NCBI GenBank assembly: GCA_016192525.1
Contig: JACPTZ010000214.1
Span: 5,659-69,658 of the forward strand
Direction: 5' to 3'
Length of the DNA: 64,000 bases
Origin: Planctomycetota bacterium
Lineage (GTDB): Bacteria; Planctomycetota; MHYJ01; JACPTZ01
The translations under genes and the position numbers were made by a program. The notes under the pieces are model-generated. The model was not told the DNA's origin and ran no database searches. It saw nothing but the letters and a program-made list of their open reading frames with translations. Positions 39,341 to 51,773 of the stretch are shown in pieces (position 1 is the stretch's first letter; each line of letters opens with the position of its first letter).

Positions 39341-39778
39341 ATGCTGCCTCCCACACTGTTCAACAAGGGGTCGATCCCGATCCTCGATCGCGGGATCTCC
39401 TTCGCCGCCCGCCGTCATCAGGTGCTGGTCCACAATATTGCGAACTCGGACACCCCCTTCTACAAGGTCCGGGACCTGCCGGTCGACGAGTTTCACAAGT
39501 TGCTCCGGCGCTCCATCGAGGAGCGGGACCGGCGCCCGGTCCCGGTCTTCCGCTTCGAGGGATCGAGCCGCATCCTCCCGACCTCGCTCGGAGGGGTGGC
39601 GGCACGGCCGCTTGAACCCGGGCGCCAGGGAATCCTGAAGCACGACGAAAACACCTTCCGCGTGGAAACGGAGATGGCGAAGCTCGCCCAGAACACCGGA
39701 ATGTACAACACGCTCACCCAGATCCTGGGACATCAGTACGACCTGATCCAGTCGGCCATCCGGGAGAGGGTGGCGTAG
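39341..39778 (+). CDS. flgB: Flagellar basal-body rod protein FlgB
   Basis: RHQVLVHNIANSDTPFYK, ETEMAKLAQN. Confidence 0.92.
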   Translation: MLPPTLFNKGSIPILDRGISFAARRHQVLVHNIANSDTPFYKVRDLPVDEFHKLLRRSIEERDRRPVPVFRFEGSSRILPTSLGGVAARPLEPGRQGILKHDENTFRVETEMAKLAQNTGMYNTLTQILGHQYDLIQSAIRERVA

Positions 39779-40675: not shown

Positions 40676-42259
40676 ATGGATGCCGCCCCGACCGCCGCGC
40701 GGTTGAGGGCTCGAGGAGAGGAGCCTCACGATGGACTTCTTCAGGCAGACGTCGCTCTCAGCCTCGTGGTCGTCGTCTCGTTCGTCCTCCTGGCCATGTC
40801 CAGCGGGACGGTGACGATGCAGCCGCTCTTCTTCGAGGACACGCCGGCGGAGGTCACCCAGGAGGTGATCCGGAAGCTGGATGCCAAGGCGGTGCCGTAC
40901 GAACTGCGCTCGGATCGGCTGTACGTGAAGCGGGAAGACGCCGACCGGCTGAGGGTAGAGCTGATCGGCGAGGGGATCACCCCCGAGGGGAAGGATCCCT
41001 ACACCTGGGTCTTCGAGCCGGACTTCACCGCCACCCCCGCCAAGCAGAGTCTCGAATGGCAGGTGACGGTCCAGCGAAGGCTCGAACGGATGATCTCGAC
41101 GATCGAGGCCATCCGTTCCGCCCAGGTGGCGATCACCTGGGTGAAGGACAAGGACTTCGTCTTCCAGGAGAACCGCGAGCGCCCCAAGGCCTCGGTGCGG
41201 GTGAATCTCAAGCAGGGCAAGTCGCTGAAGGCGGAGAATGTTCTGTCCATCGCCCGTCTCGTCTCGGGGGCGGTCAAGAATCTGGAGCCGAAGGATGTGT
41301 GGATCGTGGATGCGCAGGGCAACCCGCACGAAGTGCCGGACGAGGATTCGCCGGACGCCACGGCGACGAAGTACTTCGAGATCGAAAGGCAGAAGGAACT
41401 CGCGCTCGAGAAGGCCGCGGAAAGAGTCCTGACCCCGCTTCTGGGACCGAGTGTGGTCGCCAAGGCGAAGGTGAAGATCGACACGAAGACGAAGACGGAC
41501 ATTCGGACCGGGATCGACCCCACCCGCACCTCTGAAACGGAGATTGACAAAAAGAAACGCACCAGCGAGAACAGGGACGAAACAGCGGCGCCCGGAGTCC
41601 AGGGGAATCTCCCGCGCACTCCCGAACCGGTCGGGGGGATCGGCTCGAAGGAAACCGAGGAGGAATCGAGAACGAAGCTCGCTGTCGGCGAGCAGAACAT
41701 CACCGAGAGCACCCCGCCGGGTACGGTGGTGGACAGTTCCATCATGGTCGTGGCCGACTATGAGGAGATTCTGCGCGATCCCGCCCTGCCGAAGGACAAG
41801 ATCGGAAAGCTCAGCGACGTCGAGAAGCCGGCCCGGTACCAGGCGCGGGTCGCCGAGCTGACCAACGCCCTGGCCAAGGCGACGATGATCGATCCGCTCA
41901 AGATCGCCTTCGTGGCCTACGCCCCCGCCGAGATCGAGCCGATCCCCATCCTCACCTGGCAGCAGGAAGTGCTGGGCTTCATCCGCGAGCACGGCGACCA
42001 GATGGCGCTCGTCTTCATTGCCTGCGTCGGCATGCTCATGATCTACCGCATGGTGAAGACGGCCGTGCCGAAGGACATCCTCGCGGAGATCGCCCGGCTC
42101 CGGGGCGAAATCGCCTCCGAGGAGGCGATGGGACCGGAGGCCGCCATGGCGCAGGCGGCGGACTTCAAGTCGACCCAACTGCGCGAGAAGGTTCGCGAGA
42201 TCATCAAGAAGAACCCCCGGAGCGCGGCGAACCTGCTGCGGCGGTGGGCCCGGGACTAG
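40676..42259 (+). CDS. fliF: Flagellar MS-ring protein FliF (5' end anomalous; the natural start at 40731 is out of frame)
   Basis: Two TMs, RLERMI..I.AI..AQVAI, PKASVRV and NP.SAANLLRRW; lies between fliE and fliG. Confidence 0.85.
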   Translation: MDAAPTAARLRARGEEPHDGLLQADVALSLVVVVSFVLLAMSSGTVTMQPLFFEDTPAEVTQEVIRKLDAKAVPYELRSDRLYVKREDADRLRVELIGEGITPEGKDPYTWVFEPDFTATPAKQSLEWQVTVQRRLERMISTIEAIRSAQVAITWVKDKDFVFQENRERPKASVRVNLKQGKSLKAENVLSIARLVSGAVKNLEPKDVWIVDAQGNPHEVPDEDSPDATATKYFEIERQKELALEKAAERVLTPLLGPSVVAKAKVKIDTKTKTDIRTGIDPTRTSETEIDKKKRTSENRDETAAPGVQGNLPRTPEPVGGIGSKETEEESRTKLAVGEQNITESTPPGTVVDSSIMVVADYEEILRDPALPKDKIGKLSDVEKPARYQARVAELTNALAKATMIDPLKIAFVAYAPAEIEPIPILTWQQEVLGFIREHGDQMALVFIACVGMLMIYRMVKTAVPKDILAEIARLRGEIASEEAMGPEAAMAQAADFKSTQLREKVREIIKKNPRSAANLLRRWARD

Positions 42260-46702: not shown

Positions 46703-46866
46703 AGAACACTCGTGAGAGGGTGGCTGTCGGTCCGTAGGCGCGTCACCGGATGATGCGCCGCTCCACCCATGGAGGGAAGAAGCCGATCGGCGCCGACCCC
46801 GACGAGGGGGGCGCCGGGCCGGCGGTTTTGAGAGGACCCTTATGGCAGCGAAAGGAGGTGAATACC

Positions 46867-48513
46867 ATGCCAGACGTCAGAGTACAGACCGGCTCTGCGG
46901 CGACGGCGGCGCTTCAGCGTCCCGCGTCACCGCCGACCGGAACCTCTCCGACGCCTCCGGTCCCCGCCACGGGCTTTGTGGCGCTTCTCCCTCCGTCCTT
47001 CGGCCAGATTCTGGGCGACATGATGACGACGGTTTCCGCCGTCCGTGCCGCCCCGCTCTCGACGGGGCGTGACGCCATGAAACCGGCCGCCGGTCCCGAG
47101 ACCGCTCTCGAGGCCGCGGCGGACCACACGCTCTCCGTGGACGAGACGGCCAAGCCGGTCGTCACCCTTCGTCCGAAGGAGGGAACGAACCGGACGCCGC
47201 CGACCGATCGCCGTTCCACGGAGACACGGGCCGACGGCGAAACCGGGGCGACCTCGGTCCGAACGCCCGAGGCCCCTAACCGCGAGGCGATGGATGACTC
47301 TTCCGGAGAGGTGGAGATGACGGACGCCGCGCTCGTGGCGGCGGTAGCCCCGGCGCCGACGGCGATCCCCGTGATCGATCCGCCGGAGGTCGAGGCCACG
47401 ACGCCGGTCCTTCCCCCGGCGCCGTCCCTCAACACCGACCCCCCGGACCCGGCTTCCGGCGCCGACGCGCCGAAGGCCGACCCGAACCTCTCCCCCGGCC
47501 CGTTGCCGGAGGAGATCGCCGACCCTGAAGCCACGCTCGATCCGGTGAACGCCAAGCCGATGACGAGGCCGACCCGGACCGAGGGACTTCCGTCCGACCT
47601 GCTCGAGGCGGCGAAGCCGCCCGTGAAGGAGACGACGGTCCCCGCGATGACGACGCCGAAACCGGAAGCCGGTACGGCCGCCCTCGAGGCGGCGGGAACG
47701 GCGCCGGTCCCCGAACCGCTCCCGGCGACGGAGCCGGTTTCGTCCCGGGCGGATCGCGTCATCGAGTCGGCCGTGGTGGCGACGAAGGTCGCGGCTCAGG
47801 CCGCGTCCGAGTTGCCGTCCACGGAGGAAGGGGGCGGAAGGGCCCGGGAGACCGGGACTTCCGCGGTTTCACCGACGGGGACCGAAGTCCTCGCCGGCAG
47901 TACCCGCGCGATCGCGGCGGCCTCGGCAGGCGGGGCCTCGGCGGAGTTGTCGGGCGGGATGTCCGGAAACCTGGCCGGTTCGGAATCCGGCGGGGCCCGG
48001 GAGATCGGAGCCGTGACGGGTCGGGGAGGAAGCGCCCCGTCCTTCGCGGACCGCATGACGGCGCTCACCGAGGCCCGGGCGAACCAGGCCGAGATGATCG
48101 ACCGGATCGTCCAGCAGACCCGGATGGGCGTGGAGCACGGCCAGACGCGGATCCGGATGCAGCTGAATCCGCCCGCCCTCGGCCATCTCCGGCTCGATCT
48201 GGGGGTGCAGGACGGAGTTCTCTCCGCCCGGCTCCAGACGGAGACGCAGGCGGCGCAGGTCGTACTGCAGACGCATCTGGACACTCTGCGGGATTCCCTC
48301 GAGCAGCAGGGGATCATCGTGGGGTCGTTTGAGGTCTCGGTGCGGCAGCAGGGTCAGTCGGGGGCGGCGTTCGCCTTCGGCCGGCCGAACTTCGGTGAAA
48401 ACACCTCCCGGGCCGCGTCCCGTCGGTCGAACCCGGAACCGGAACCCGCCTTGGCGGGAGTCGGCGCCGATTCGTCCGGTCGGGGTTGGCACCTGGTGGA
48501 CATGTTTGCGTAA
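46867..48513 (+). CDS. fliK: Flagellar hook-length control protein FliK
   Basis: AAGGAGGTG SD, Pro/Thr-rich body, C-terminal IRMQLNPPALGHL...LRDSLEQQGI. Confidence 0.88.
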   Translation: MPDVRVQTGSAATAALQRPASPPTGTSPTPPVPATGFVALLPPSFGQILGDMMTTVSAVRAAPLSTGRDAMKPAAGPETALEAAADHTLSVDETAKPVVTLRPKEGTNRTPPTDRRSTETRADGETGATSVRTPEAPNREAMDDSSGEVEMTDAALVAAVAPAPTAIPVIDPPEVEATTPVLPPAPSLNTDPPDPASGADAPKADPNLSPGPLPEEIADPEATLDPVNAKPMTRPTRTEGLPSDLLEAAKPPVKETTVPAMTTPKPEAGTAALEAAGTAPVPEPLPATEPVSSRADRVIESAVVATKVAAQAASELPSTEEGGGRARETGTSAVSPTGTEVLAGSTRAIAAASAGGASAELSGGMSGNLAGSESGGAREIGAVTGRGGSAPSFADRMTALTEARANQAEMIDRIVQQTRMGVEHGQTRIRMQLNPPALGHLRLDLGVQDGVLSARLQTETQAAQVVLQTHLDTLRDSLEQQGIIVGSFEVSVRQQGQSGAAFAFGRPNFGENTSRAASRRSNPEPEPALAGVGADSSGRGWHLVDMFA

Positions 48514-48534
48514 CGGAGTAAAAGGAGGACTCTC

Positions 48535-48963
48535 ATGGCACACGTGGGAGACATCACTCTGGGCTCACCATCGAGGGCGACGGCGCCCTCGGCCCTGGAA
48601 CGGTCGAAGCTGACCCGGGAACAGTTCCTCAAGATCCTGACGGCGCAGATGTCCAAGCAGGATCCGCTGAACCCGATCACGGACCAGGACTTCATCGGTC
48701 AGATGGCGAGTCTCCAGAACCTGGAAGCGGTATCCGCCTTGACGGAAGGCATCAAGAGCATGCAGAAGTCCCAGGAAATCGGAGCGGCTTCCGCGCTCAT
48801 CGGGAAGACGATCCGCGGGACTTCCGACTCGAGGCTGCCGATCCAGGGGGTGGTGAGTCAGGTGACGATCAACGGGGCGGAAGTGCGACTGGTGGTGGAC
48901 GGCGAGACCGTGAGCATGGACAACGTCACGGAGATCGCCCCCACCTTCTTCGCGGGAGTGTAG
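48535..48963 (+). CDS. flgD: Flagellar hook capping protein FlgD
   Basis: FLKILTAQM..QDPLNP, A.ALIGK. Confidence 0.93.
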   Translation: MAHVGDITLGSPSRATAPSALERSKLTREQFLKILTAQMSKQDPLNPITDQDFIGQMASLQNLEAVSALTEGIKSMQKSQEIGAASALIGKTIRGTSDSRLPIQGVVSQVTINGAEVRLVVDGETVSMDNVTEIAPTFFAGV

Positions 48964-48966
48964 GCG

Positions 48967-49362
48967 ATGGACCCCCGCCTGACCTCCATCACGGGAGCGG
49001 ATTCGCGGGGACGGCTTTCGCCGGCCCCGTCCGGGCGGCCGTCCGCCGCCTCCGGGCCGTCGTTCGCGACGGTGCTCCGGAAGGCGATCGACACCGCCCC
49101 GGCCGGACCCGTGAAGTTTTCCGGGCATGCGCAGGAACGTCTGGCGTCCCGCGGGATCGAGCTGTCCGCGGACGATCTGGACGCGATCGGCGCCGCGCTC
49201 GGGAAGGCGCAGGCGAAGGGGGCCCGCGACACGCTGGTGCTCCTCCGGGACCTCGGGTTCATCGTTTCGATCCCGAACCGGACGGTGGTGACGGCGCTCG
49301 ACCGGGCCGACCTTCGCGACCGCGTCTTCACGCACCTGGACAGTACCGTGATCGCCGGATGA
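48967..49362 (+). CDS. Putative flagellar operon protein (TIGR02530-like)
   Basis: VKFSGHAQERL.SRGI, KGARDTLV and NRTVVTA...VFT.LDS.VI. Confidence 0.85.
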   Translation: MDPRLTSITGADSRGRLSPAPSGRPSAASGPSFATVLRKAIDTAPAGPVKFSGHAQERLASRGIELSADDLDAIGAALGKAQAKGARDTLVLLRDLGFIVSIPNRTVVTALDRADLRDRVFTHLDSTVIAG

Positions 49363-49410
49363 CGGGCGCCGCGGGCGTTCGTCACCGTCGATCGAAGAAG
49401 CAGGCGTTCA

Positions 49411-49542
49411 ACGGCTGGTCCCGGAAGCTACCCCGATCGCCCCGGGCAGACCCCGCCGCAGGTGCGGCGGGGCTCTGTCGAGGGGGGGGTCGGGGAAGTG
49501 GAAGGGAAGCCGTACCGGGCCCCCGACCGACCGACGGGGCCC
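49411..49542 (+). ncRNA. Candidate structured cis-regulatory RNA in the flgE leader
   Basis: Long nested stem (ACGGCT/AGCCGT, TCCC/GGGA, CCCCGATC/GGTCGGGG and others) plus hairpin GGGCCCC-CGACCGACCGAC-GGGGCCC just before the SD. Confidence 0.55.
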
Positions 49543-49562
49543 TCTTGTTGAGGAGTGTTCCC

Positions 49563-51773
49563 ATGGCGCTGGTTCGCGCGTTGAACTCCGCCATATCGGG
49601 CCTCCGGGCGCACCAACTGCGGACGGATGTCATCGGCGACAACCTCGCCAATGTCAATACCACGGCCTTCAAGACGGGACGGGTGCAGTTCCAGACGCTC
49701 CTGAGCCAGACCATCGCGTTCGGCTCGGCCCCTTCCGGCTTCCTGGGTGGCATCGATCCCAAGCAGTTCGGGCTCGGAGTCGCGATCGGCGATACGAACA
49801 AGAACTTCGGTCAGGGCTCGCTCATCGCCACCGGCGTGGCGAGCGATATGGCGATCGAAGGAGACGGGTTCTTCATCCAGAACGATCAGGGCGGCGGTCC
49901 CGTCTACACCCGCGACGGGTCGTTCTCGATCAACCCGAAGAATCTCCTGCACAATCCCTCGACGGGATTCATCGTGCAGGGATTCCGGGCCGATTTCACC
50001 ACGTTTGAAATCCAGGCCGGCGGACCGCTCCAGGACATCCTCATCCCCATCGGGGACCTGCGGATCGCGCGCGAGACGGACAACGCGATCTTCGACGGGA
50101 ACCTGAACGGGGGCGGGGACATCGCGAGCGCCGCGAGCGTCCTGGACTCCGACCAGTTCCGTTCCGTCGACGCGCTCGGCGCGGACACCGGGGTGGCCAC
50201 GCTCGACACGCTGCTCACCGACCTCGGCCGGCGCGTCAATGGGATCACCGTCGATCTCGCCCTTACCGCGAACGACGTCATCTCCATGCAGGCCCAGAAG
50301 GGAAACCGGACGCTGCCCGATTCGACGTTCAAGATCTCGGCCACGCCTCCGGCGGAATCGGAAGGGATCGATGACTTCGGCACGACGCTCGAAGACCTCA
50401 TCGACTTCATGGAGGACGCGCTCGGGATCAACACGGTGGGGTCCGCGACCTCGTCGGCCTCGGACGACCTGTACTCCTCGCCGATCGTCTCGGCCTCCTT
50501 CGAGGACGGGGCCGGGGTCGGCGGAGACACCCTCGACACCACGGCCGGCACCTACACGATCGGCGCCGCGAACCTGGCGGCGATCGGCGGCGGGGGCGGA
50601 TTCCTCGACGCCGGCGTGGAGGTGGGGGACTACATGCGGTGGACGACCGGCCGCTCCTCCGGCCAGATCGTGCGGGTCGCCGCCGTCACCGCAACGACGA
50701 TCACCTTCGATCCGAACAACACCCTCGATCCGGCCATTCCGGCGCCCACGAGCGGAGATGCCGCCGTCGTGGGGGACGGGGACCGGTGGGAGATCCACAA
50801 GCAGTCCCGCGTGGCGCTCGGAAACGACGCCAGCGGAACGGCGCCGTTCAACAACGCCTATCCGGACCCGGCCCGTCAGCGCAAGTTCAACAACACGGCG
50901 CTGGAGGGAGTCCTCCGGATCGACGGCAACGTCGGGACGGCGAATGCGATCCGCAACCTGGAGCTCGCGAAGTCCGGGGGGGACCGGCTCACGGTCTTCA
51001 CGACCGTGGGGAACGCGGCCGGCGAGAGCGTCATCTCGAACGCCACCGTGTTCGACACCCTCGGCCAGGCGCACGTCGTCGAGATCACGTACGAGCTGGA
51101 GTCCAAGTCGAGCCTCGACCTCCAACGCGGCGATCGATGGCGATGGTTCGCCGAGGCGGTGGACTCGGACGGCCCGGACCGGGTGGTCGGGACCGGCTTC
51201 ATCCAGTTCGATACGGCGGGGCAGTATGTCTCCGAGAACCCGCTCGCTTCGATCAAGATCAACCTCGGCGGGCTGACGAACAACGCCGGGGTCCTGACGG
51301 TGGTCGGCCCCCCCTCGGGCGCCGTGACCCCGCTCTCCATCACGCCGGACCACTCGAAGGTCACCGGGTATGCGAACCGGATCTCCGAGGTGGCCCTCGT
51401 GGACCAGGACGGGTTCGGGCAGGGGACGCTGACCGACTTCAGCACGGGGACGGACGGAGTCGTCACCGGGATCTTCTCGAATGGTCAGACGAAGAGCCTG
51501 GCCCAGATCGCCCTGGCCCGGTTCCAGAACAACAACGGTCTCACCGCGGAAGGCGACAATCTGTTCCGCGTGGGGGCCAACTCGGGGATCGCGATCGTGG
51601 GAACGCCCGGGACGTTCGCCCGGGGGGTGGTCCACGGCGGGTTCCTTGAGGAGTCGAATGTGGACCTGGCGCGCCAGTTCACGGACCTGATCGTGGCCCA
51701 GAGGGCCTTCCAGGCGAACGCCCGGACGATCACGACGTCGAACCAGATGCTCCAGGACCTGCTGAACATCTAG
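49563..51773 (+). CDS. flgE: Flagellar hook protein FlgE (long, 736 aa)
   Basis: SGL....DVIGDNLANVNT, GDGFF, YTRDG.F and LEESNVDL..FTDLI.AQRAFQAN. Confidence 0.95.
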   Translation: MALVRALNSAISGLRAHQLRTDVIGDNLANVNTTAFKTGRVQFQTLLSQTIAFGSAPSGFLGGIDPKQFGLGVAIGDTNKNFGQGSLIATGVASDMAIEGDGFFIQNDQGGGPVYTRDGSFSINPKNLLHNPSTGFIVQGFRADFTTFEIQAGGPLQDILIPIGDLRIARETDNAIFDGNLNGGGDIASAASVLDSDQFRSVDALGADTGVATLDTLLTDLGRRVNGITVDLALTANDVISMQAQKGNRTLPDSTFKISATPPAESEGIDDFGTTLEDLIDFMEDALGINTVGSATSSASDDLYSSPIVSASFEDGAGVGGDTLDTTAGTYTIGAANLAAIGGGGGFLDAGVEVGDYMRWTTGRSSGQIVRVAAVTATTITFDPNNTLDPAIPAPTSGDAAVVGDGDRWEIHKQSRVALGNDASGTAPFNNAYPDPARQRKFNNTALEGVLRIDGNVGTANAIRNLELAKSGGDRLTVFTTVGNAAGESVISNATVFDTLGQAHVVEITYELESKSSLDLQRGDRWRWFAEAVDSDGPDRVVGTGFIQFDTAGQYVSENPLASIKINLGGLTNNAGVLTVVGPPSGAVTPLSITPDHSKVTGYANRISEVALVDQDGFGQGTLTDFSTGTDGVVTGIFSNGQTKSLAQIALARFQNNNGLTAEGDNLFRVGANSGIAIVGTPGTFARGVVHGGFLEESNVDLARQFTDLIVAQRAFQANARTITTSNQMLQDLLNI

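Follow-up and report, generated by a model that had tools for sequence, protein, structure and literature searches.

A widespread, unlisted family of structured leader RNAs in front of the flagellar hook gene flgE, and its candidate protein partner

The spacer between flg_new (TIGR02530) and the flagellar hook gene flgE of a Planctomycetota bacterium harbors a putative leader RNA (positions 49411-49542, plus strand, the same strand as both genes), and we find that this leader is a member of a widespread family of structured flgE leader RNAs that is not listed in Rfam. Positions are those of the window, i.e., the whole stretch of 64 kb that was analysed, and the features are collected in Table 1. 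We infer, with a probability of about one in two, that the leader serves as an RNA operator or processing site at the ribosome-binding site of flgE and is the cis target of the flg_new protein. The family is absent from Rfam 15 and from the literature found; structured leaders before flagellar genes are, as such, of a known kind.

Table 1. The flg_new-flgE region of the window
Feature	Position	Strand	Basis or remark
flg_new (TIGR02530 / Pfam Flagellar_put), 131 aa	48967-49362	+	proposed trans partner of the leader RNA
5' spacer, from flg_new stop to motif	49363-49410	+	non-conserved; motif offset from the stop varies among loci
HP1 5' side: P1 ACGGCU 49411-49416, GG bulge 49417-49418, P1b UCCC 49419-49422	49411-49422	+	layout of the family consensus
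HP1-tip expansion, 81 nt	49423-49503	+	replaces the HP1 tetraloop; MFE structure
HP1 3' side: P1b GGGA 49504-49507, P1 AGCCGU 49508-49513	49504-49513	+	within R1 match 49503-49542
HP2: 7-bp stem 49517-49523 / 49536-49542 and 12-nt loop 49524-49535	49517-49542	+	R1 match, GAnnGAnnGA signature
Shine-Dalgarno sequence GAGGAG of flgE	49550-49555	+	sequence; 7 nt 3' of HP2
flgE (flagellar hook protein, 736 aa)	49563-51773	+	NCBIfam NF004241 322.6 bits, TIGR03506 258.9 bits

A conserved two-hairpin family

The first hairpin of the family (HP1) has a covarying outer stem, a GG(N) bulge on its 5' side, a C-rich inner stem and a variable tip, while in the second (HP2) a stem whose pairs covary freely carries a GAnnGAnnGA loop. 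Searching 83 loci (265 kb, both strands) with model R1 of the motif gave 84 matches, 82 of which lie in the flg_new-flgE spacers of 80 loci, and the two hairpins are also seen in these spacers in 12 class relatives and in loci of many phyla. A sequence-only reading of the window had named, for Firmicutes, a GCTGGxCC...GGAxGC motif with a GAxxGAxxGA loop between TIGR02530-type genes and flgE. This was right as to the motif, which stands between the two genes in 80 of the 83 loci, and too narrow as to its spread, since the records carry at least 10 phylum-level labels. Cultivated carriers include Paenibacillus, Tepidibacillus and Bdellovibrio, and three cultivated genomes have one R1 match each, always the flgE leader. 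Nearly all carriers searched have one copy of the motif per genome.

Covariation and loop conservation across taxa, on which the sequence-only reading had made its candidate depend, are both strong. In a MAFFT seed alignment of 41 sequences, 88.4% of the cells are paired as compared with 66.9% in shuffles, 17 of the 18 pairs change on both sides, and the observed values were reached by none of 500 shuffles; slid controls are 40-58% paired. The model-fitted alignment of all 84 matches is 90.8% paired against 68.4% in shuffles, with changes on both sides in 8/8 pairs of HP2 and 6/6 pairs of P1. About 95 of its 1275 cells are G-U pairs by a tally of the per-pair table, and as these pair on the plus strand only, they point to an RNA of the flgE strand. 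The GG(N) bulge is present in 80 of the 84 aligned rows and the GAnnGAnnGA signature in 57.

The position of the motif is fixed with respect to flgE and free with respect to flg_new. The distance from the end of HP2 to the start codon has a family median of 19 nt (17-24 nt in 32 of 40 loci) and is 20 nt in the window (ATG at 49563), and with this anchor, some 19 nt ahead of the flgE start codon, the motif abuts the ribosome-binding site. Its offset from the flg_new stop codon, in contrast, can be anything between -3 and +194 nt in the 80 loci, so that the 5' spacer is unconstrained. In AT-rich members of the family, HP2 is followed on its 3' side by an A-rich stretch and then the Shine-Dalgarno sequence.

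The motif is thus widespread and shows textbook covariation, yet it belongs to no Rfam 15 family. The comparison with Rfam proposed earlier gave no relevant match to positions 48000-51000 of the window at E values up to 10 (chance-level miRNA models only, Termite-flg not among the matches) and none to the spacers of 19 canonical leaders at E up to 1. A description of the flgE leader motif was likewise not found in the literature searched, which included PMC5737381, PMC2864571 and two 2026 preprints, the supplements of the Weinberg surveys of 2010 and 2017, with their motif lists, lying outside this scope.

The leader in the window and its expanded first hairpin

All of the pairings that the sequence-only reading had listed are present in the leader, as are its second hairpin ending 7 nt before the Shine-Dalgarno sequence and its two flanking genes, TIGR02530 (91.9 bits) and FlgE. 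The outer stem of HP1 joins ACGGCT with AGCCGT, the inner stem joins TCCC with GGGA, and HP2 is formed by GGGCCCC and GGGGCCC around the loop CGACCGACCGAC, which reads C-GACCGACCGA-C and carries the family signature in GACCGACCGA. R1 matches the 3' side of HP1 and the whole of HP2 at 49503-49542 (26.8 bits, E 0.0015); this is the best match in the 64-kb window, where the next reaches 10.8 bits, and also the best in the whole genome to which the window belongs. The only other R1 match in this genome (C128, 23.5 bits) was set aside as a chance match, as it lies inside a 973-aa ORF and has no loop motif. The search for a dispersed repeat, also raised earlier, was negative, with one full-length copy in the genome's own assembly (82% complete) and all other matches at most 47 nt long.

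Taken alone, the fold of the leader is only moderately above chance and has no strand specificity. The minimum free energy is -115.6 kcal/mol, with z = -2.86 on the plus strand and 1 of 200 shuffles equally good, and the minus strand gives z = -2.62. It is the conservation and covariation in other genomes that raise the leader above chance. No sigma-70-like promoter or terminator pattern was found in the scan of 48400-49700, the spacing of a sigma-54 -24/-12 site does not fit by eye, and the leader does not present the GC-rich hairpin followed by a U tract that defines an intrinsic terminator.

The window copy differs from the family only by the 81-nt expansion at the tip of HP1, the assignment of HP1 in the window being based on manual comparison with the family consensus by eye. 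In the 84 aligned family members the apical segment of HP1 measures 4 nt at the median and never more than 36 nt, as against 81 nt here. The expansion has purine-rich internal loops and three further helices, formed by CCCCGATC (49431-49438) with GGTCGGGG (49488-49495), GGCAGA (49445-49450) with TCTGTC (49474-49479), and CCCCGCCGCA (49451-49460) with TGCGGCGGGG (49463-49472), the last being the tip hairpin at 49451-49472. R1 does not bridge the insertion, even when its filters are switched off, and the two halves of the leader were matched separately, the 5' half of HP1 weakly (49413-49469, 6.3 bits). The long stem that the sequence-only reading had taken for the conserved element is a lineage-specific insertion at the HP1 tip, while its broader claim, that the spacer holds a conserved structured RNA, stands. 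A second copy of the expansion was not found in the genome's own assembly, and the DNA of the 200-nt spacer gave only matches of at most 34 nt in 41 relatives; the window's genome is the sole member of its taxonomic family. The stretch is contained in full in four DNA runs, all from one groundwater study from which the assembly itself may derive, and the runs listed as containing it include no RNA run.

Co-occurrence of the motif with flg_new

In unbiased searches of genomes, the motif occurs only where TIGR02530 is present and lies directly downstream of flg_new. The Planctomycetota sample (151 genomes) gave 9 matches in 8 genomes, all directly upstream of an FlgE-like gene, and all 8 genomes are among the 18 that carry TIGR02530; a further 58 genomes of this sample have hook or rod genes, no TIGR02530 and no match to the motif. 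At TIGR02530-positive loci without a match under strict filters, the top match with filters off falls right after flg_new in 10 of 10 cases (11.9-39 bits), and at 12 flgE loci of TIGR02530-negative genomes all matches score 17.3 bits or less, with none located 5' of flgE on the same strand. The Bacilli sample, also of 151 genomes, gave a similar picture: of the 69 TIGR02530-positive genomes, 44 have exactly one match each, and of the 82 negative genomes none has any. Twenty-five positive Bacilli genomes were missed by the strict filters; the motif was found in all 20 of those that were retrieved.

These counts include related genomes and are therefore non-independent samples. Moreover, the motif sits between flg_new and flgE, so that it would be inherited or lost jointly with them even without a functional tie, and the co-occurrence is confounded to this extent. 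In genome G089, a second copy of the motif precedes a second hook-family gene and has no flg_new adjacent to it. In relatives from families f2 and f12 the HAxxR motif of the protein is kept while the GA-repeat HP2 is missing, and HP2 thus cannot be an obligatory partner site.

Predicted fold of the flg_new protein

The flg_new gene is located inside the flagellar operon, between flgD and flgE, and has no antitoxin-like neighbour. Its product scores above the NCBIfam TIGR02530 cut-off (83.2 bits) and matches PF12611 with 31 bits against 21.1. The N-terminal ~45 residues are predicted to be disordered, and the folded domain comprises residues 45-131 (AF2 model with pLDDT 76.7 overall and 87-90 in residues 50-110). 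A fold search of the PDB using VIA-align, which is independent of Foldseek, placed RelE/ParE-superfamily toxins at all of ranks 1-19 (Z 4.5-6.5 over model residues 45-125), the matches being modest, with all Z below 8. When the PDB was searched using Foldseek, no match had an E value of 0.001 or lower (all rows had E of at least 0.2), and a PDB sequence search with the flg_new profile found nothing meaningful. By our reading of the conserved columns of flg_new, the typical catalytic residues of RelE on the sheet are not evidently kept. His54 and Arg58 of flg_new (window numbering) are invariant.

The flg_new family also appears to share a sequence motif with DUF4258. Alignment of the flg_new profile with the DUF4258 alignment using hhalign gave a probability of 92.4% (E 5e-7) over only 26 columns, which cover an N-terminal FSxHAxxRLxxRxI motif. 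Weak matches to DUF4258 are present in 44 of 61 flg_new family members (best E 6.6e-4); ten relatives scanned singly scored 12.8-19.8 bits against a threshold of 25, at profile positions 1-21 only, and the flg_new protein of the window has no match at E up to 0.1 and stays below the Pfam gathering threshold. DUF4258 (PF14076) has been classed with the BECR-fold RNase toxins (PMC11980606; bioRxiv 10.64898/2026.08.28.747851), in reports whose main texts contain no occurrence of 'flagell'. The flg_new protein thus appears to resemble RelE/ParE-type BECR RNase toxins in its predicted fold and to share the DUF4258 motif, and it differs from these toxins in having no antitoxin-like neighbour and in scoring below the Pfam threshold. 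The conserved flagellar gene TIGR02530/Flagellar_put is given as 'function unknown' in a 2026 preprint on the ancestral flagellum (PMC13277936), and a toxin-like RNase fold, if the model is right, beside a dedicated RNA would be the first functional lead for it. When metagenomes were scanned for the flg_new protein, a single locus (44% identity) was recovered and close relatives were absent.

The near-perfect co-occurrence, the predicted BECR/RelE-like fold and the DUF4258-like motif together strengthen the idea that flg_new is the partner of the leader.

Possible function and alternative explanations

We hypothesize that the BECR-like folded domain of flg_new binds the exposed GG bulge and the GA-repeat loop beside the Shine-Dalgarno sequence, or cuts there, and that its action would set the translation of FlgE from the long flagellar operon transcript. 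Among repression, activation and cleavage, occlusion of the ribosome-binding site or cleavage appears most likely. If the pairing of protein and RNA holds, hook-protein synthesis in many bacteria would be set by a previously unseen RNA-protein switch, and flagellar assembly would have co-opted a protein from a toxin superfamily. A more elaborate version, speculative and in our view quite unlikely, is that flg_new is a domesticated BECR-fold RNase or RNA-binding protein with a single target that acts in a checkpoint of hook completion. By virtue of its disordered N-terminus it would be a substrate for export through the flagellar type III apparatus; during the building of rod and hook it would be exported and flgE translated, and on the switch of substrate class at hook completion it would be retained, bind or cut the leader and shut off hook-protein synthesis. 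Such a checkpoint, if true, would parallel the FlgM/sigma-28 checkpoint at the level of RNA and would be conserved in many phyla.

The best-surviving alternative, possible though on balance unlikely, is that the leader is a cis element that works independently of the protein and is tied to flg_new by plain synteny. It could be a 5' structure that stabilises the transcript after cleavage by a general RNase (Y, E or III), a spacer that makes flgE translation independent of the upstream genes, or a translational enhancer that keeps the Shine-Dalgarno sequence open so that a weakly translated operon can still yield the abundant hook protein. The spacing of 17-24 nt to the start codon suits any role at the ribosome-binding site, the adjacency to flg_new accounts for co-inheritance without function, the G089 copy dispenses with an adjacent flg_new, and the HP1 tip tolerates 0-81 nt, as expected of a purely structural stem. 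However, such an element would need neither an invariant GG bulge (80 of 84 rows) nor, in the 57 rows with the loop signature, invariant G and A at its six positions while the stems vary, and bases that are both exposed and conserved typically mark a recognised site. Nor would it be expected that the hook genes of the 58 flagellated genomes lacking flg_new are all without the motif.

A site for a global RNA-binding regulator, above all CsrA, is improbable. This would place on the hook gene the type of control known from the flagellin leaders on which FliW-CsrA acts, such as B. subtilis hag and C. jejuni flaA (PMC4894983). The two share post-transcriptional control of a flagellar structural gene (inferred for the flgE leader), purine motifs on hairpins beside the Shine-Dalgarno sequence and a logic that can couple synthesis to the state of assembly. 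CsrA is encoded in the window's own genome (85 bits), the Shine-Dalgarno sequence itself contains GGA, and the bulge triplet is GGA in 30 of 84 rows. But GGA is not conserved there, as the triplet is GGU in another 30 rows, including the window, and GGC in 20, and the HP2 loop repeats GA rather than GGA, so that the conserved bases are the GG(N) bulge and GAnnGAnnGA and not GGA in loops as in the flagellin leaders. The motif tracks TIGR02530 and not CsrA: B. subtilis and T. maritima match CsrA and do not match TIGR02530. The target also differs, since FliW-CsrA acts on flagellin and the leader described here precedes the hook gene.

A riboswitch or RNA thermometer gating flgE translation in response to a small molecule or physical cue is very improbable. 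A conserved structured leader beside a Shine-Dalgarno sequence with no match in Rfam would fit such a sensor, but the leader is built of two simple hairpins and has neither a multi-helix junction nor a conserved pocket inside, its conserved bases are in a bulge and a terminal loop, the tip of HP1 is freely expandable, and a conserved alternative pairing with the Shine-Dalgarno sequence was not seen in the leaders compared. That there is no functional RNA at all, the sequence being a chance GC-rich palindrome, a DNA-level site or a selfish palindromic insertion, draws on the modest fold score, similar on both strands, and on an expansion without relatives, which might be neutral or the result of a single insertion, but is already contradicted for the core motif, and next to negligible overall, in view of a core kept across many phylum-level labels with compensatory changes and strand-specific G-U pairs, its single copy in nearly all carriers searched and the lack of a promoter or terminator pattern in the region scanned.

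Comparison with other known systems

The Termite-flg RNA is found in the 5' UTRs of flagellar genes and is, like the flgE leader, an orphan structured RNA motif found by comparative genomics. It was described as a likely RNA, probably cis-regulatory and not a riboswitch, from 'Termite hind gut only' in the survey of Weinberg et al. 2010 (RF01729; PMC2864571). The flgE leader motif, on the other hand, occurs in loci with at least 10 phylum-level labels, cultivated species among them. The Termite-flg model has no match in the window at E up to 10, nor in 10 canonical leaders of many phyla, and none at E up to 1 in 9 leaders from Chitinispirillia and Fibrobacterota, several of which come from MAGs that, judged by isolate names only, are probably from termite gut.

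The closest parallel to the mechanism proposed for flg_new is perhaps RegB of phage T4, an endoribonuclease that acts at the Shine-Dalgarno sites of early mRNAs. By analogy, both would be small proteins of RelE-like fold that turn off specific mRNAs at a short purine motif of the ribosome-binding site, and the RegB structure (PDB identifier 2hx6) was recovered in the fold search with flg_new, at rank 41 with a Z of 3.3. RegB, however, is encoded by a phage, has many targets and lacks a structured operator dedicated to it, whereas flg_new, if the proposed mechanism is true, would have just one target in each cellular genome, folded into the conserved pair of hairpins, and cleavage by it is putative.

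The start of flgE

We rejected an in-frame ORF from 49359 by which FlgE would be 68 residues longer. The FlgE proteins of all 12 class relatives align from their first residue, at the ATG homologous to 49563, and the stretch upstream of it is the conserved non-coding motif.

Conservation of a two-hairpin leader upstream of flgE

The flagellar block of the window is Firmicute/spirochaete-like in style, and its genes are listed in the table together with the RNA leader of flgE. The source genome, a groundwater MAG (82% complete, 227 contigs), is the sole member of its family. Its FlgE has conserved ends (residues ~1-184 and 487-736), the central ~300 residues being uncovered by shorter FlgE models, and the ORFs of class relatives are of similar size. 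An ATG at 49359, overlapping the flg_new stop (ATGA) in frame with flgE, could open an 804-aa ORF, which we consider a GC-rich artefact since FlgE of all relatives begins at the homologue of 49563.

Features of the flgE region (window positions)
Feature	Position	Remarks
FliK	46750-48513	PF02120
FlgD	48535-48963	
flg_new	48967-49362	TIGR02530, 91.9 bits (cut-off 83.2)
flg_new-FlgE spacer		200 nt
Leader (hairpins HP1 and HP2)	49411-49542	
HP1 tip expansion	49423-49503	81 nt
Match of R1, covariance model of the leader	49503-49542	26.8 bits; 3' side of HP1 and entire HP2
Shine-Dalgarno sequence (SD)	49550-49555	GAGGAG
FlgE	49563-51773	736 aa
MotA		next after FlgE

The pairings described in the sequence-only reading are all present in the spacer, which folds with an MFE of -115.6 kcal/mol (z = -2.86). 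As one of 200 shuffles is equally good and the opposite strand is nearly as stable (z = -2.62), the fold by itself is weak evidence. The comparison with Rfam 15 that the reading had proposed gave no relevant match for the spacer region, in which neither a sigma-70-type promoter nor an intrinsic terminator pattern was found, and a dispersed repeat, which would have spoken against a leader, was looked for without finding a second copy in the source genome (82% complete). DNA searches of 41 relatives returned nothing alignable and a metagenome scan returned one distant locus; four DNA runs, all from one study that is possibly the source of the assembly, contain the identical region, and no RNA run is listed as containing it.

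Comparison across taxa reveals a conserved RNA structure of the flgE strand with exposed invariant purines and a fixed distance to the start codon. Spacers were gathered from 12 class relatives and from 80 loci obtained by a flg_new-alignment search of one-genome-per-species contigs (the best 80 of 531 relatives), and nearly all of them, at lengths of 64-273 nt, contain the same two hairpins. In HP1 the outer stem covaries and is followed by a GG(N) bulge on the 5' side, frequently with a single A or G opposite it, and then by an inner stem starting C-C; the tip is short, with a median of 4 nt, and often resembles a GNRA tetraloop. The HP2 stem, 5-10 bp long, shows no sequence conservation, and its loop of 10-12 nt reads GAnnGAnnGA, a pattern that is exact in 57 of 84 aligned rows, with a pyrimidine at the fourth loop position in 56 of these. 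Record titles of these loci include Planctomycetota, Bdellovibrionota, Chitinispirillia/Fibrobacteres, Eremiobacterota/Vulcanimicrobiota, Balneolaceae, FCPU426, Coatesbacteria, Poribacteria and Latescibacterota, as well as Paenibacillus, Tepidibacillus, Ammoniphilus and Clostridia of the Bacillota. Thus, the leader that the sequence-only reading mentioned as lying between TIGR02530-type genes and flgE of Firmicutes is real and does occur there, but its range extends over many other phyla.

When 41 trimmed examples were simply aligned with MAFFT, three visibly misaligned rows included, 88.4% of the cells were paired, compared with 66.9% after column shuffling. Both sides vary in 17 of 18 pairs, and none of 500 shuffles equals any of the measures observed; shifting the 3' partners by 1-3 columns lowers pairing to 40-58%. 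The covariation across taxa, whose absence would have counted against the element, is therefore present. Both strands of 83 loci (265 kb) were searched with R1; 82 of its 84 matches fell in flg_new-flgE spacers, covering 80 loci, and the two off-target matches scored 18.2 and 16.7 bits. The R1-fitted alignment, which is biased towards the structure, pairs in 90.8% of cells (68.4% in shuffles), with double changes in all eight HP2 pairs and all six outer HP1 pairs. By a tally of the per-pair table, G-U pairs account for about 95 of 1275 cells; since they would be mismatches on the opposite strand, the structure is that of RNA from the flgE strand and not of DNA or an antisense transcript.

The 3' end of HP2 lies a median of 19 nt from the flgE start codon (20 nt in the window; 17-24 nt in 32 of the 40 loci whose start is secure), whereas HP1 lies anywhere between -3 and +194 nt from the flg_new stop, and hence the element belongs to the ribosome-binding region of flgE rather than to the 3' end of flg_new. 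A terminator was considered and rejected because AT-rich members have, after HP2, no U tract but an A-rich stretch and the SD.

The HP1 tip of the window copy

The R1 match in the window is the best in the 64-kb stretch (runner-up, 10.8 bits) and in the whole source genome, whose only other match lies inside a 973-aa ORF and lacks the GA loop. The model cannot span HP1 here because of the insert at its tip, which elsewhere has a maximum of 36 nt. As the insertion flanks (5' GGCUGG-N-CCC-GGAAG, 3' GGGA-(A/G)-GCC) resemble the short HP1 of the nearest relatives, the long stem is, on this comparison, best read as a lineage-specific expansion of a variable tip. The sequence-only interpretation is thus largely borne out as regards a conserved structured RNA, whereas the long stem that had drawn its attention appears to be an add-on, the remainder of HP1 matching the relatives. 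Other Planctomycetota, Chitinispirillia and Bdellovibrionota have independent, smaller tip expansions of 23-36 nt. In the window copy, one GGAAG lies at the 5' edge of the expansion (49423-49427) and three lie at its 3' edge (49494-49509), and relatives have an HP1 tetraloop GGAA or GAAA at this place; slippage or an insertion event may have left these repeats.

Association with flg_new

Genome-wide searches reveal one copy of the motif per genome in nearly all carriers, and only in genomes with flg_new. Three cultivated genomes gave one R1 match each, always the flgE leader. Among 151 Planctomycetota genomes, searched with strict filters (E up to 0.01), R1 found nine matches in eight genomes, all nine directly upstream of a FlgE-like gene and eight directly downstream of flg_new. 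TIGR02530 is present in 18 of the 151, including all eight, and hook/rod genes in 76, leaving 58 flagellated genomes with neither TIGR02530 nor an R1 match. In one genome (G089, contig C27), two tandem hook-family genes each have their own motif copy (~39463-39516 and ~41286-41340), and flg_new precedes the first only. The strict filters lose weak copies: with filters off, the top match lay right after flg_new in 10 of 10 loci of TIGR02530-positive genomes where the strict search had given no match at that position (11.9-39 bits, the two weakest, 13.9 and 11.9, being doubtful), and 12 flgE loci from TIGR02530-negative genomes, taken as a matched control and each with >1 kb upstream, gave no match above 17.3 bits and none just upstream of flgE on its strand. 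Among 151 Bacilli genomes, 44 had exactly one match, all within the 69 carrying TIGR02530 (0 of 82 negative genomes), and 20 of the 25 positive genomes that were missed, when fetched, had the motif right after the gene in every case (18-36 bits). The genomes counted are related and hence not independent, and linkage alone could yield this pattern as the motif sits between flg_new and flgE.

Predicted fold of flg_new and possible function of the leader

The AlphaFold2 model of flg_new, built from 61 family members (mean pLDDT 76.7; 87-90 over residues 50-110), has a disordered N-terminus of ~45 residues followed by a beta-alpha-alpha-beta-beta-beta-alpha-beta domain. Foldseek against the PDB found nothing at E <=0.001, its weak top rows being rich in RelE, YafQ and ParE toxins. 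In a Foldseek-independent search of 48,161 chains, ranks 1-19 are all RelE/ParE-superfamily proteins covering model residues 45-125, with Z values (PrpT 6.5, ParE1 6.2, HigB2 5.7, Cami1 5.7, RelE 5.6, YafQ 5.2, YoeB 4.5) in a range that the tool itself rates inconclusive; it is the uniformity of these ranks, rather than the Z values, that seems telling. Weak, below-threshold Pfam matches to DUF4258 occur in 44 of the 61 members, over the first ~20 profile positions only, and profile-profile comparison with 20 genuine DUF4258 sequences gave a probability of 92.4% (E 5e-7) over only 26 columns, which form the invariant FSxHAxxRLxxRxI motif. DUF4258 is classed among the BECR-fold RNase toxins, with function untested, in two sources (PMC11980606; bioRxiv 10.64898/2026.08.28.747851) whose main texts have no occurrence of 'flagell', and a 2026 preprint tabulates Flagellar_put among conserved flagellar genes, with function unknown (PMC13277936). 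The source genome also encodes an ordinary DUF4258 protein (contig C164, 62211-62426, 40.1 bits), which presumably belongs to a toxin-antitoxin pair without relation to the flagellar locus.

We hypothesize, with a probability of about 0.5, that the GG bulge and GA loop are read by the flg_new protein, which would thereby control the flgE message. The exposed bulge and GA-repeat loop would form the recognition site, flg_new its putative reader from a fold family of RNA-cleaving or RNA-binding toxins, and its action 7-20 nt from the SD, by binding or by cleavage, could control 30S access or message integrity within the long operon transcript. Relatives from f2 and f12, two families of the class, retain the protein motif without a GA-loop HP2, the second motif copy of G089 fronts a hook-family gene without an adjacent flg_new, and the fold and profile evidence is modest, all of which count against this reading. 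A structural role independent of any protein, the tie to flg_new being mere synteny, is the less probable but serious alternative. CsrA, though encoded in the source genome, is an improbable reader, as the conserved bases are not GGA and it is also found in genomes without TIGR02530; a sensor RNA or lack of function share the remaining probability.

Relation to known RNAs and variants of the leader

The closest working likenesses are protein-operator hairpins at ribosome-binding sites and the FliW-CsrA flagellin leaders, and, should the leader be cleaved, phage T4 RegB, which acts at SD sites and whose structure ranks 41 in the Foldseek-independent search. The nearest named RNA is Termite-flg (RF01729). 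As its Rfam model gave no match in the window or in any of 19 canonical leaders, nine of which come from Chitinispirillia/Fibrobacterota MAGs (several taken as termite-gut from isolate names only), the motif appears to lie outside Termite-flg, as far as that model can tell. No paper describing the flgE leader was found, the motif lists in supplements of the 2010 and 2017 surveys being outside the scope. By these comparisons, we regard the element as a new family of a known type of RNA, the structured leaders that precede flagellar genes; flg_new, with its predicted toxin-like fold, would be an unusual partner for it. A Chitinispirillia MAG taken as termite-gut from its isolate name has a near-threshold match to Acido-Lenti-1 RNA (L058:59-105, minus strand), which scores 33.7 bits against a gathering score of 37 and is located 1.4 kb upstream of flg_new.

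Two tandem copies of the whole motif occupy a single ~230-nt flg_new-flgE spacer in a Coatesbacteria MAG (L046:503-551, 621-673) and in an unclassified MAG (L061:834-882, 954-1004). In Bdellovibrionota loci (L037, L052, L057 and others), the HP1-HP2 linker is a conserved CCAAAC-like stretch, and HP2 is followed, within the final ~20 nt ahead of flgE, by a third small hairpin whose loop displays the SD (A/U-GGAGG). Two species of the neighbouring genus g10 (L017/L021 = L028/L034) carry an extra hairpin upstream of the motif, formed by the first ~85 nt of the spacer, which the other six g10 species lack.
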